NCBI GenBank assembly: GCA_035221665.1 | Contig: CM069134.1 | Coordinates: 28,272,001 to 28,336,000 of the forward strand | Length of the DNA: 64,000 bases | DNA from: Okamejei kenojei | Taxonomy: Eukaryota | Direction of reading: 5' to 3' | In this document: piece by piece, positions 7,700 to 58,400 of the stretch | Numbering within the stretch: the first letter of the stretch is position 1 | Layout: each line of letters starts with the position of its first letter | The notes under the pieces: model-generated | Database searches by the model: none | The model's input: only the letters and a program-made list of their open reading frames with translations | What the model was told of the DNA's origin: nothing | Translations under genes and position numbers: made by a program

Positions 7700-9035
7700 C
7701 AATAATAACAATTACATTCTCATTGCAAGTTTAAGCATTGTGGTTTAATCACTGCATGTTTATCCAGAAACAAGCAACAGGTAATTACCAGTAAATAGTA
7801 TGGCCAGTGTAAATTACAGACAAAAATAAAACACTGCTACAAATGTTATCTTTTAAAGAACATAGCATGAATTTCACTAGTCTGATGTCTCCAACCTATG
7901 CACATTGATTACATTGGCTTGGTAATGTGTGGCGTTACCACCATTTAAAAAAAGAAACATCTGTGACCACTGTAAAAACCTACACAGATTATATAAACTT
8001 CATGCAACTGAATCTAAGGATCGTGCTAAACGAGCCATTCAAACTATAAACAGATTTATCAAAACAGTTACACATCAAGTACATTGTAAGCAGTTTTGCC
8101 TACGTTTCAATCTTAAAGGAGCACCATATTCATGGAAATTACACAAAACGTTCTAGTAATCCATCTGTCACATGGTAATGTAAATCTCATTGAAAGTGCA
8201 TCATTATGACCGTTGCACTCAACGCTGTCTAGGTAAAAGTGACCGCTGTTCCTCCTCATTTGTTTTTCTAAAAAAAGACAGATTAGCACAAATTTTTCAC
8301 AAAGATTATACCCCTTTAAGATTCTGCGGGAAATAATGAGAAAAAGTTATAACTTGAAACAAAATACAATACATTGGCTTCATATTGTTCCTTCATTAAA
8401 GAAGAAATTCAATACAGGCCAAGGTAAAAAAAAAAGACACTAAGACAAAAAATAAGGACAATGCTAGATATTTTTAGAAGTGAAACAATTGATAAGTGAG
8501 AGCAAGTTACAGCACGAAGAACACAGAATAAGATTTCCTTTACACATTACAACTGAAATCACCAGCTGGAAACTCACTGACCAATGCTCTGCACTGTTAA
8601 TACATCCACATTTGTAAATGTTTTGTGAAGAATTTTGAAAGTGCAATATATTTACTGAGGGGAAAACACTGACAGTACTCAACATCTGTCATGTGAAAGG
8701 TGGATGTTGAGAGCTTTTTGGAATGGACTGGTCACCGACCCTGGTAAAAATAAAGTACAGGCTAAAGCAAGTACGTACTGAACAGCCAATGGAGGTTTCA
8801 AGAGTGTTTCACAGGACTTTAGGACAAGTCTATTCCAGACACAACACTGAATATTTAAATACATAGTTATACAGATGACTGCAAAATATTACATTGCTAA
8901 GAAGAATATCAGCTTGTTCCCTCATTCCAGATGATATTAATAATGTGAGTGATATTCTGACAATCGCCAGGCTGCTATGAAATATACCTCCTATGGAAAT
9001 GGAACGTGCTTTGCTTTGACCTCAACAATAAAACT
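7700..9035 (-). other. Probable distal SULF1 3' UTR
   Basis: No recognisable repeat, U-rich on the minus strand, directly downstream of the last coding exon; 3' end not determined. Confidence 0.45.
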
Positions 9036-9074
9036 TTTATTATGAAAGATTATGGTTGACCTCCAAATAAATAA
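9036..9074 (-). promoter_or_regulatory. AU-rich nonamer UUAUUUAUU (9074-9066) and candidate AAUAAA poly(A) signal (9041-9036) just after the long-frame stop
   Basis: Motifs read directly on the minus strand; a U-rich stretch follows AATAAA; usage not shown. Confidence 0.45.
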
Positions 9075-9976
9075 TCAATGGGCTGTGAGTTGATGAAAGG
9101 ATTGAGGGGGCAAGGCACTGCCTTCTGTACTGAAGCTCTCTTGTCCTCCTTCGCCACTGTTCTCAGGCTCTTGCTGAAGCTGGACGTTTGCCAACTTCTC
9201 GTTGTCACTGGTTTCTCGAGGAACAGTGAAAGCTCTGGAATAAAGGTGGCTCATAGAGCCAACAGGAAGATATGTTTTGCCTTCAAATATGTCCTCCTTC
9301 TCCTCCACTTCATTCTGGATGCTGGGAGATGGAAATGTGGCACTCTGCTGAAGAAAGTAGCTATTTCTGGTCTCCATTTCCACCAGTCCATTTCCACTGA
9401 AACCGTGGTCATATTCCAACTCCCCCCATTCCTTTGTCAACTGTTTTGTCCGATTATGTTGCCACCATTCAGTGTTTGATAATTGCTTATCGGGTATACG
9501 ATTGTAGTTTGTCGCTTCCTCCTTTGGACGCTCGCCACTTGCAATGGTTGTGCTCATATTTGTACCATCAGAGTCAGCAAGTACAACTGGTTGTGCTTCT
9601 GTTGCCTCCCATACAGTCATGCCACTAGATTCATCCTCGGGCTCAGTAGAGAACACATTTCCAAAAATAGGCAATGGAGTTGGTGCCATGTCCAGTGCTG
9701 TGGTGTCAATGCTCAAATCAAGAGTCCCGCCCTTATTTAGCGCAATGGCCTCAGAAGTTTTAATGTGTCCAGAAAAAGTCTTAAGCAGTGCAAACATTCT
9801 ATCTACATCCTTCCAGTAATTAGTCCAGTCACCAAGGCTAAGGCTATAATTATGCCTGTGTTCAAACAAGCTTTCATCCACACTGTACAAATTTTCAAGT
9901 TCTCCCCAGTTGATATTTTCCGTTAAGTTTGGCAGTTTAAGTGGATTAACCTTCCCATCCATCCCATAGCTGTCCT
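9075..9976 (-). CDS. SULF1: SULF1 last exon, alternative frame: 300-aa acidic C-terminal extension (E)DSYGMDGKVNPLKLP...FHQLTAH*
   Basis: 902 nt without a stop from the same acceptor; in frame with the 124-nt exon when the 34-nt and 54-nt exons are skipped (G+AG gives Glu). Confidence 0.78.
9946..9976 (-). CDS. SULF1: SULF1 last exon, canonical frame: (R)GQLWDGWEG*
   Basis: gcctgcag acceptor at 9977-9978; same C-terminus as recalled human SULF1; TAA at 9948-9946. Confidence 0.96.
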
Positions 9977-10694
9977 CTGCAGGCAGAAACAAAGATTGAA
10001 ATAGTTCATTTTCATGTATGTCCACCATCCATAGTTGCTGAAGCACTGCGCGTGTGTGCAGACATGCATCTGCTCCATTATCAGCTGGTTATTCAAAGCA
10101 AAATTAGAGACAGCACATTTCATTACAAAAAGCCATGAACAAGGTTATACAGCAAAAGCAGATTGAAAGCACACACCCCAACATGAGACACTAGAAGAAT
10201 GCTCAGAGAGAAATGATTAATAAAACAAAGTCACAAATGTCAAAAGCAGATTCTGTAAAGGAAATGTCAAGTATGTGACCATTTTGATTTTACAGCAACC
10301 ACATTGTTATTTAAAAAATAATTTCCACTTTATTACTGCCCTTAATATTAGATTACTGTGAAATCAAATACGTTTTACACAAAAAATGACATTAATGTTC
10401 GTGTTATTTTAGGATAATATCCATATTCTTTCTTGCTCACACATGCAATAATGCATGTGCACACACATATCGATAAATATATATATACACCTTTACTTTA
10501 TTTTATTTGTTTCCTTGTGCCTGTTTAATACATATTTGACAGAGAGTTTAGTTCAACAAAATGCTCTACTCTTCTGAATATTTGGTTTCAGTCTTTCCCT
10601 TAAATGTGGAGACAGGAGCAACCTGGTGGGATTGGAATGCATGCTTGTTAAGCAGCAGAAATAGCATGCATTAGAGAGAGCCAAGTAAACTTGG

Positions 10695-11785
10695 CAGACA
10701 ACGGGGGTAAAAGCGTGCCCAACGTCGCCCTCATTCTGATGGCCACCTTCGTGTGTGGCTGCATCAGGCGGAGTGTAGAGCCAAGGCACGTGGGCACCAA
10801 GTGTCACTACCTGCTGAGGTTCTACCTGTCCCCGGTGTTGAGAAGGATGGGCCTGGCGCAGGTGCCACGCAATGTGCCAGTCAGCTGGACATTGCCGCCC
10901 CATCTGTCGTCGGTGGAAGGGTTCTTCCGGACCAACACCTTTGACCACATGTCCATCGGGCAGTGGTCAGCACAGAATGTCCTGCAGGCACTGCAGGGAA
11001 AGGACTCTGTGGACCCGGTGGCGTGGTTCCCTGAGCAGACTGCCCAGCTTGTCTGGCAAAATGCCTCATCGCCAGAACTCACCAACAAGCACCAAGACCT
11101 GGCTTGGCTGGCGGTGAGGGGAGCCCTCCCAGTCAGATCCTTCCTGCACCGTCGGAACCTCACTGCCAGCGCACGCCTCCCTCGGGACGGCTGCTATGGC
11201 GAGGAGACGGTTGCCCACCTCTTCACAGAGTGTGGGTTTGCTAAAAGAGTCTGGAGAAAAATGCAAGGGTCCCTGGTACGCTTTATCCCGAACAGCTCCG
11301 TCACAGAGGACTCAGTGATTTACGGACTGTTCCCAGGGACACATTCAGAGGCTGACATCGCGTGCTGCTGGAGGGTCATCAACTCGGTAAAAGACGCCCT
11401 TTGGTTCACCACCCAGCAGAGCGAGATGTCCGTCAGGGAATGTTGCCGACTGGCCCGCTGCAGACTGCAGGAGTACGTGCTGAGGGACGCACTGAAGCTC
11501 GGTGCAGCCAACGCCAAGGCTCGGTGGGGGAGGGCCACAGTCTAACGCCCTTCCGCTGCTGGACATGGTGGGTACGGTATGGTGGAGACGCCCCTCAATA
11601 TAAGGGAAGGTATCCCACGCCACTGTGGCATGAGTAGGGGACTGATTTGTGGAAATTTGGGGGAAATAAATGTCTAAACTGTATTGATCTATTGTACAGC
11701 CTCCAAAAATGTCGGATGGATTTTCCGCAAGGTTAATGTATTGTATATATTTATCATTCGAATAAAGTATATTTTGAAATTAAAT
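10695..11785 (+). mobile_element. 5'-truncated Tx1/L1-like LINE: ORF2 C-terminus with zinc-finger-like segment, plus 3' UTR
   Basis: ORF 10691..11545 with GG..VPN, W....GALP and C..EETVAHLF.EC.FA..VW motifs; GC/CpG-rich; AATAAA at 11761-11766. Confidence 0.8.
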
Positions 11786-19584: not shown

Positions 19585-19813
19585 CATGCATCAAATAATG
19601 CTGGATGGCACATACAATAAAAGTAGACGAAGCTTCAATGGGCCAGCTCATGCAATTAGACGGAATGAAAGTTGTGGAAGAGAATAAAAAGTATGGATAC
19701 CTGTGCTGATCAAAGCTTCCTCCATCTTTATTTCCTGATTAGGAAAATACAAGAGTAATTTATGTTAATGATTTTAGAACAGTAATATTATTCACATTGT
19801 ATCTGTCCATGCA
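19585..19813 (-). promoter_or_regulatory. Three UGCAUG (Rbfox-type) elements flanking the 34-nt exon
   Basis: catgca on the + strand at 19585-19590, 19649-19654 and 19808-19813. Confidence 0.6.
19701..19734 (-). CDS. SULF1: SULF1 34-nt exon (G)NKDGGSFDQH(R); sets the reading frame, probable cassette
   Basis: cctaatcag acceptor, weak GTATCC donor; matches recalled human GNKDGGSYDLHR. Confidence 0.92.
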
Positions 19814-22020: not shown

Positions 22021-22144
22021 CTGTTTCTGCTCCCTTGGTCCGTGGAGTGCATTGCTTGTGTCCTTGGCAACTTCTTAATTCCATTAGCTGTATGTGCAAC
22101 TGATTAAGTACTTCCCGGTCAACCATGTGTATTGTATTTGTCAG
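22021..22144 (-). CDS. SULF1: SULF1 exon, 124 nt: [41 protein letters not shown], ends in phase 1
   Basis: tttcag acceptor, GTAACC donor; [15 protein letters not shown] motif. Confidence 0.97.
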
Positions 22145-58266: not shown

Positions 58267-58400
58267 NNNNNNNNNNNNNNNNNNNNNNNNNNNNNNNNNN
58301 NNNNNNNNNNNNNNNNNNNNNNNNNNNNNNNNNNNNNNNNNNNNNNNNNNNNNNNNNNNNNNNNNNNNNNNNNNNNNNNNNNNNNNNNNNNNNNNNNNNN
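58267..58400. other. Assembly gap (134 N)
   Basis: Run of N. Confidence 1.

Follow-up and report, generated by a model that had tools for sequence, protein, structure and literature searches.

The window analyzed here, a stretch of 64,000 nucleotides from the skate Okamejei kenojei (assembly GCA_035221665.1, contig CM069134.1, forward-strand positions 28,272,001 to 28,336,000), is, by sequence comparison, the 3' part of the SULF1 gene on the minus strand. By tblastn, residues 355 to 1120 of Amblyraja SULF1 were placed on exons of the minus strand that lie from 60935 to 9078, the first 354 residues of SULF1 falling outside the window. Membership in the sulfatase/hydrophilic-domain family was supported by a Pfam match to PF12548 (E value of 2e-9) in exon 34484-34864. 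Two runs of N (assembly gaps, at 31880-32212 and 58267-58400) are both intronic, and the last intron holds what remains of a retroelement, a 297-codon frame on the plus strand (10652-11545) with a zf-RVT domain (E value of 2e-9). The features of the gene that concern us are as follows.

27134-27307, minus strand: hydrophilic-domain exon with a basic cluster, the proposed electrostatic partner of the tail
22021-22144, minus strand: upstream coding exon of 124 nt, ending ...KGAET plus G (phase 1), placed by AG/GT borders, translation, and tblastn with Amblyraja SULF1
Donor of the 124-nt exon (22021-22144, minus strand): used by both splice routes
19701-19734, minus strand: penultimate cassette exon of 34 nt, encoding GNKDGGSFDQHR
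9946-9976, minus strand: dual-coded start of the last exon, with the short frame (R)GQLWDGWEG (stop TAA, 9946-9948) and the long frame EDSYGMDGKV...
9075-9976, minus strand: long-isoform tail of 300 amino acids, acidic and without Cys (stop TGA, 9075-9077)
9036-9041, minus strand: candidate proximal polyadenylation signal AATAAA, 34 nt past the long-frame stop

These exons would give SULF1 two alternative C termini. When the 34-nt exon is included, the last exon is read in the frame ending in GQLWDGWEG, with its stop at 9946-9948 (short SULF1, with a 10-residue ending), and when it is skipped, the 124-nt exon is joined directly to the last exon (start at 9976), shifting the frame and adding the 300-residue acidic tail. 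The arrangement is that of a dual-coding last exon, in that the penultimate exon (34 nt) is not a multiple of 3 and both stops lie in the last exon. The 34-nt exon was picked from 476 in-phase AG..GT candidates in the 12-kb intron on the grounds of its length and a 10/12 identity to the human exon peptide (table in PMC7392665), and its donor, CAG/GTATCC, deviates from the consensus. In human and mouse SULF1, the same 124-nt and 34-nt exons are found, and the skip is marked as annotated and supported by transcriptome sequencing (RNA-seq) (PMC7392665 supplements). The supplements also record a single proteotypic peptide from the tail, seen in one mouse brain lysate out of two, while the main text of that paper gives only a primer pair for Sulf1, and Sulf2 has no row in its penultimate-exon table. 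The exon-by-exon anatomy of the skate gene (124 nt, 34 nt, and last exon) agrees with that of human and mouse, where the upstream exon is also 124 nt long; from the RefSeq models and this homology, we infer that the 34-nt exon is skipped in the skate as well. If the proximal AATAAA were used, the last exon would be almost entirely coding in the long form. Further polyadenylation-type signals were found at 7749, 6338, 6110, and 5623.

The long-tail isoform is already annotated across jawed vertebrates. A homologue search with the tail returned, out of 2,256 scored candidates, 77 long SULF1-type proteins carrying it, of which 76 are named entries, so that a tail described as hidden in the initial annotation belongs to an annotated isoform; a representative-sequence search gave 37 matches, all in tail-like stretches, of which 36 had no names. 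The closest homologue is Amblyraja radiata Sulf-1 isoform X2 (98% identity). All named matches are called Sulf-1, Sulfatase 1, arylsulfatase, or hypothetical protein with Sulf domains, and no Sulf-2 name appeared among the named tail homologues of the three homologue searches. Together with a core tree of the tail-bearing proteins that tracks the vertebrate groups, these matches identify the tail, at the level of sequence, as orthologous to SULF1 and not SULF2.

The open frame itself (9977-9078, minus strand) was confirmed, with its 300 codons and its stop at 9075-9077, although the span first given to it (9075-9930) was right only at the stop end, since the boundary at 9930 drops the first 16 codons. 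Among 5,000 shuffles of the exon, the longest frame averaged 72 codons and never exceeded 193, which places the frame far above chance. The tail is acidic and Ser/Thr-rich, as had been stated (Asp plus Glu, 49; Ser plus Thr, 54; Cys, 0), with 21 Lys plus Arg and a net charge of -28. Its highest 19-residue Kyte-Doolittle mean is 0.72, indicating a tail without a membrane anchor, again in agreement with the initial annotation. In Amblyraja, the charge is reversed between the two parts of the protein (net -31 for the tail versus +25 for residues 23 to 820). Proline accounts for 16 of the 300 residues (5.1% in the human tail), and the Pro-rich, destabilizing character that is typical of, but not required for, frameshift tails is absent in the skate tail. 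The five Ser-Gly dipeptides noted earlier are present, at tail residues 69, 118, 147, 194, and 274, a marginal excess (2.0 expected; P = 0.04). The four N-glycosylation sequons are likewise in place, at residues 17, 43, 140, and 175, but their number is at chance level (3.4 expected; P = 0.44, not significant). As also reported before, the hydrophilic-domain exon (34488-34728) has no Ser-Gly, and none was found in residues 1 to 820 of the 98% identical Amblyraja protein; in the equivalent hydrophilic-domain linker, 14 of 95 named SULF1 proteins have a Ser-Gly anywhere.

In order to follow the tail through vertebrates, we aligned 102 rows, namely, the tail of the window plus one named protein per genus for 101 genera: 8 cartilaginous fish (window included), 4 non-teleost ray-finned fish, 34 teleosts, the coelacanth, the axolotl, 2 turtles, 28 birds, 5 marsupials, and 19 placentals. 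Same-genus extras, one unnamed match, and one match flagged as contaminated were excluded, and the named tail homologues included no frog, squamate, monotreme, or lamprey. The first two homologue searches were seeded by words of the tail and thus favor species that keep those words; a search with the conserved block only provided five further genera that were examined, its other new matches (birds) being left outside the count. All 102 tails are between 247 and 365 amino acids long and acidic (net charge of -7 to -35), 27 contain Cys, and none has a furin-type RxK/RR motif. S-x-E motifs were not clearly enriched (0.7 to 4.5 observed versus 2.3 to 3.8 expected, by clade). The clade-weighted mean conservation is 0.78 for tail residues 1 to 66 and 0.47 for the remainder, which has a polar composition beyond the helix described below. 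The following elements were distinguished in the tail.

9780-9911, minus strand: conserved block (tail residues 23 to 66), with an amphipathic helix at 48 to 66
9768-9773, minus strand: Ser69-Gly (TFSGH), in 8/102 rows, cartilaginous fish only; basic context, within the predicted extension of the helix
9621-9635, minus strand: site A, DESSG, Ser118 (9624-9626), an acidic, decorin/bikunin-like Ser-Gly
9534-9539, minus strand: Ser147-Gly (ASGE), in 7/102 rows, cartilaginous fish only; scant acidic context
9387-9410, minus strand: site B, DHGFSGNG, Ser194 (9396-9398), the best candidate glycosaminoglycan (GAG) site, resembling DFSGTG of SULF2
9264-9296, minus strand: conserved acidic island EDIFEGKTYLP (consensus, EDIFEDQxYLP), with Tyr in 81/102 rows
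9153-9158, minus strand: Ser274-Gly (NSGE), in 8/102 rows, cartilaginous fish only; moderately acidic context
9114-9125, minus strand: site C, EGSA, Ser287 (9117-9119), an EGS(A/G) near the C terminus that had been overlooked

Site B was the best preserved of the Ser-Gly sites. The conservation of FSG.G, proposed at the outset as a check, was borne out, with the Ser-Gly of FSG(N/D)G kept in 101 of 102 genera (Phe at -1 in 95 rows, Gly at +1 in 101, and Gly at +3 in 100), a figure that is probably an overestimate given the seeding of the searches by tail words. Mouse has VVSGNG, and the site is lost in Dipodomys and in both caecilians available, the two caecilian losses having surfaced in the block-only search. 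These losers of site B keep the frame, the block, and site C; in Dipodomys, sites A, B, and C are all without a Ser-Gly. Site A is a Ser-Gly in 77 of 102 rows, a distribution that is sharply divided between non-therians (77/78) and therians, i.e., marsupials and placentals (0/24), with E(E/D)xSG as the consensus outside therians and EEASG and EEGSG in teleosts. Placentals keep only one Ser-Gly site (18/19). At site C, Ser is present in 99 rows and is followed by Ala in 66, by Gly in 33, and by nothing else, these being the only two residues that xylosyltransferase accepts. Marsupials have the Gly form, as do the ray-finned fish other than cypriniforms, and on the core tree of 77 rows, the Ala/Gly state changes five times, two of the changes being losses in single teleosts. 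All five genera examined from the block-only search keep site C, four keep site A, and three keep site B.

Sites A, B, and C are the three best conserved of the 33 consensus serines after the helix (post hoc permutation P value of 0.006, with adjacent columns not being independent), and the best kept of the 233 dipeptides there are GS286, SG194, EG285, GN195, and NG196. The number of Asp/Glu residues in the 11 positions before the serine ranges by clade from 3.0 to 4.9 for site B (3.2 in placentals) and from 2.4 to 4.5 for site A, above the background of 1.8 in every clade that possesses them, while site C has 1.5 to 3.0. Of the five Ser-Gly dipeptides that had been read as proteoglycan sites, the two at 118 and 194 are ancient, and those at 69, 147, and 274 are restricted to cartilaginous fish; Ser69-Gly is, from its sequence context, unlikely to be a GAG site. 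Nor did the four skate sequons hold up as features of the tail, being kept in only 58, 24, 3, and 8 of 102 rows. Two other sequon positions, absent from the skate (tail residues 34 and 72; 9876-9878 and 9762-9764, minus strand), are kept in 84/102 and 77/102 rows and flank the helix. Nearly all teleosts (33/34) have an extra acidic (G/A)SG just after the helix, often ELGSG, a lineage-specific gain of a further motif of the acceptor type.

Similar contexts are known among established acceptors. The xylosyltransferase XT1 accepts only Gly or Ala at +1 and favors acidic residues ahead of the serine, although nearly all known xylosylated sites have Gly at +1 and not Ala (PMC5992326); the decorin acceptor EDEASG (PMC10424144) and the bikunin peptide EEEGSG (PMC5992326) are both like site A; and prediction of GAG sites from motifs only is described as ambiguous and prone to overcalling (PMC8418075). 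On sequence grounds, sites A and B are plausible GAG acceptors, short of certain.

The most conserved part of the tail is the block at residues 23 to 66, in which W24, R41, W51, K56, D57, F62, and A63 are nearly or fully invariant, 5 or 6 residues being identical in 102/102 rows (R41, W51, K56, D57, F62, and A63). Mismatches within the block are conservative (0.40 to 0.47 versus 0.15 to 0.17 when shuffled), indicating that the constraint acts on the protein. The helix has a hydrophobic moment of 0.47, and AlphaFold2, run with tail residues 1 to 90 and 76 rows, gave a helix at 48 to 82 (pLDDT of 84 to 90 over residues 51 to 70) and a short helix at 24 to 30, with a pTM of 0.31. This gives no support to the small folded helical domain suggested initially, there being one confident helix, a low pTM, and no fold match. 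The block had no Pfam family, no Foldseek match against the PDB, and no usable match in the ESM Atlas; a wide structural search with it retrieved only generic helices (best Z score of 4.9; 0 of 48,161 at a Z score of at least 5), and a PDB sequence search gave only sulfatase-core matches among the 60 listed out of 100. Judging from the model, the block looks like a docking helix. A full-length AlphaFold2 model of the long form of Amblyraja, built from an alignment with 44 orthologues, was unreliable overall (mean pLDDT of 33.6), and within this low-confidence model, no secondary structure was predicted after residue 891. Co-folding of residues 600 to 820 with the block (835 to 895) scored 0.00, informative neither way. 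The possibility that the block duplicates a segment of the hydrophilic domain (ca. 612 to 645) was rejected (HHalign probability of 0.13%; E value of 0.45), and the best window anywhere in the core reached 2.9% in HHalign.

Taken as a whole, this pattern leads us to propose, with a probability of roughly 0.6, that SULF1, in its long form, is a part-time proteoglycan controlled by a splice switch. An ancient splice switch provides the two C termini, with skipping adding ca. 250 to 300 residues, namely, a short conserved amphipathic helix, as predicted, followed by an acidic, weakly conserved spacer holding 1 to 3 conserved Ser-Gly acceptor sites. In the Golgi apparatus, xylosyltransferase would prime the serines, most likely that of site B, plus that of site A outside therian mammals, and a chondroitin/dermatan sulfate (CS/DS) chain, or less likely heparan sulfate (HS), would be built on the primed serine. 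The long form would then presumably be secreted, and the chain and the acidic backbone together could offset the basic hydrophilic domain, leading to looser cell surface retention and tuned access to HS. The proteoglycan-type module of the initial annotation gains support from FSG.G, whose SG194 is among the two best-kept dipeptides after the helix; the three lineage-restricted Ser-Gly dipeptides and the ordinary sequons do not add to it. A broader version, in which the frameshift switch has made SULF1 a proteoglycan enzyme since the first jawed vertebrates, with 1 (placentals) to 3 or 4 (teleosts) chains, and tissue-specific skipping of the 34-nt exon sets its spread and the strength of HS editing, seems to us an even bet.

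The last steps of this proposal, weaker surface retention and tuned activity, are extrapolated from SULF2, and the former is modeled on SULF1 given an engineered sequon: within the accessible text of PMC13405426, SULF1 with engineered CS showed a medium/cell ratio 4- to 8-fold higher. The sign of any change in activity is uncertain, since CS is associated with higher SULF activity in that text, whereas removal of the chain from SULF2 raised activity in the available portion of PMC10721642. In a human aorta data set (PMC13769062 supplement), SULF1 was mainly heparin bound: it was quantified in that fraction in 2/4 patients plus one with both fractions and in the anion-exchange fraction in 1/4, from 1 to 3 peptides assigned to no SULF1 entry but the canonical one. 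This fractionation counts mildly against a dominant glycanated SULF1 in that tissue.

The same conservation could be read without any GAG, the tail being a functional acidic disordered extension, a peptide polyanion perhaps bearing sulfotyrosine, phosphoserine, or O-GalNAc, with its islands acting as short binding motifs. We regard this as possible though appreciably less probable. Acidity in every row and the conserved Tyr of the acidic island are what it would predict, and islands without Ser-Gly (NxIPE, ELE, and DIFEDQxYLP) are as conserved as the candidate sites and may be binding motifs; the EDIFEGKTYLP island, ending in YLP, could, we presume, serve for tyrosine sulfation or binding. The predominance of Ala at +1 of site C (66/99) also fits. 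However, S-x-E motifs lack a clear enrichment, and the polyanion leaves unexplained why the best-kept serines lie in acidic S(G/A) contexts and why the +1 residue of site C varies between Gly and Ala and no further. One further island, NxIP(E/D) at 9489-9503 (minus strand), has clade-weighted conservation of 0.98 for Asn and 1.0 for Pro.

Alternatively, the working part could be the conserved helix (tail residues 23 to 66), docking on the core, a second SULF1, or a partner in place of the conserved GQLWDGWEG end, with the remainder as a spacer. The block is indeed the most conserved stretch of the tail (0.78 versus 0.47), its invariant residues, hydrophobic moment, and pLDDT agree with such a role, and caecilians retain it in spite of having lost site B; but the downstream islands, kept in order across 200 residues, find no explanation in it, and it is compatible with the proteoglycan reading and not exclusive of it. 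We consider it improbable as the account of the tail. Least probable is that exon skipping yields the long frame as no more than a tolerated by-product or a degron, or that the conservation reflects RNA elements of a 3' untranslated region (3'UTR). Frameshift tails are predicted for >10% of mammalian genes, many of them Pro-rich and destabilizing (PMC7392665), and in this sense a by-product would be nothing unusual. Against it stand the conservative nature of the substitutions, a frame open for 247 to 365 codons in tetrapods, the coelacanth, and cartilaginous and ray-finned fish, the low Pro content (16/300), the absence of any Rfam match in window positions 1 to 24000, and the tail peptide detected in mouse brain.

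The preferred reading, the proteoglycan form, has its nearest precedent in the paralogous secreted endosulfatase SULF2, which in humans carries a CS/DS chain at Ser583, according to the available portions of three reports (bioRxiv 10.1101/2021.01.04.425218; PMC10721642; PMC13405426). In both proteins an acidic run is followed by F-S-G-x-G, site B sharing the aromatic residue at -1, the Ser-Gly, and the Gly at +3 of the SULF2-type CS sequon, and the SULF2 chain tunes secretion and activity. The difference lies in position, with a single constitutive site in the hydrophilic domain of SULF2 and 1 to 3 sites in a frameshift-spliced C-terminal tail, outside the hydrophilic domain, in SULF1. For DFSGTG, a cluster of acidic residues ahead of the motif was required (26% CS when it was present and 0 to 2% when it was not; PMC13405426), and by the count of Asp/Glu in the 11 preceding residues, site B falls in between SULF2 (6) and the failing variant (2), the latter two values being taken from the printed peptides of that source. 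S508-Gly of SULF2 is unmodified in what is available of bioRxiv 10.1101/2021.01.04.425218. Both SULF2 groups report SULF1 as unmodified, do not mention a long form in the accessible parts of their papers, and name the GAG chain as a SULF2/SULF1 difference that possibly explains the behavior of the two enzymes (PMC13405426; bioRxiv 10.1101/2021.01.04.425218). The SULF1 that they tested was probably the short cDNA, given that the accessible text refers to a plasmid from the original cloning and leaves splicing unmentioned (PMC13405426). If the long isoform is glycanated, the contrast would be restricted to short SULF1, and a splice-set chain would parallel, by another route, the constitutive chain of SULF2.

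With respect to novelty, the long isoform and the class to which it belongs are already known, and we found no earlier paper with the proteoglycan proposal. Annotated long SULF1 isoforms (RefSeq/Ensembl; ca. 1,070 to 1,250 amino acids, with a human frameshift tail of 272 amino acids [PMC7392665]) have the same skip, the same frame, and an orthologous tail, with no difference in kind between them and the skate form at the sequence level. Dual-coding last exons that would otherwise be 3'UTR, as described in the available parts of PMC7392665 and bioRxiv 10.64898/2026.05.28.727796, share with SULF1 the nontriplet penultimate exon, a last exon that supplies the new stop and keeps two frames, and an origin at or before jawed vertebrates; the typical frameshift tail is Pro-rich and destabilizing, whereas that of SULF1 is acidic, luminal, and 5% Pro. 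SULF is absent from the accessible main text of the latter source. The SULF1 splice form described in the consulted part of PMC3224561, SULF1B, is a shorter one. Our literature search, which did not cover subscription papers or bioRxiv supplements, found nothing on function, modification, or glycanation of the SULF1 tail, and SULF1 was absent from the searched supplements of PMC13247117 and PMC6886504 (part of the files of the latter).

Splicing likewise decides the presence of a GAG acceptor in the CD44v3 and versican GAG exons, as far as the sources available on them go. Appican (L-APP) is a splice-regulated part-time proteoglycan. In these three, the exons or junctions involved are in frame and the proteins are not enzymes that edit GAG, whereas in SULF1 the reading frame changes and the substrate of the enzyme is itself a GAG. 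Roles of SULF1 in Wnt, FGF, and VEGF signaling and in tumors are established, and with three named serines and one exon as mutation targets, isoform-specific functions become directly testable. The SULF1 tail may be absent from glycoproteomic searches against Swiss-Prot only, which would leave the raw data already available open to a second search.

A second alternative exon was observed farther upstream, an in-frame exon of 75 nt (YFSRDKGMRNQGKLKNRNSHLHPF) at 28844-28918 (minus strand) that is present in the window and missing from the Amblyraja X2 model. Of the 81 long isoforms that could be measured at this position, about 10 are short in a similar way. Without this exon, the hydrophilic domain lacks a basic stretch.
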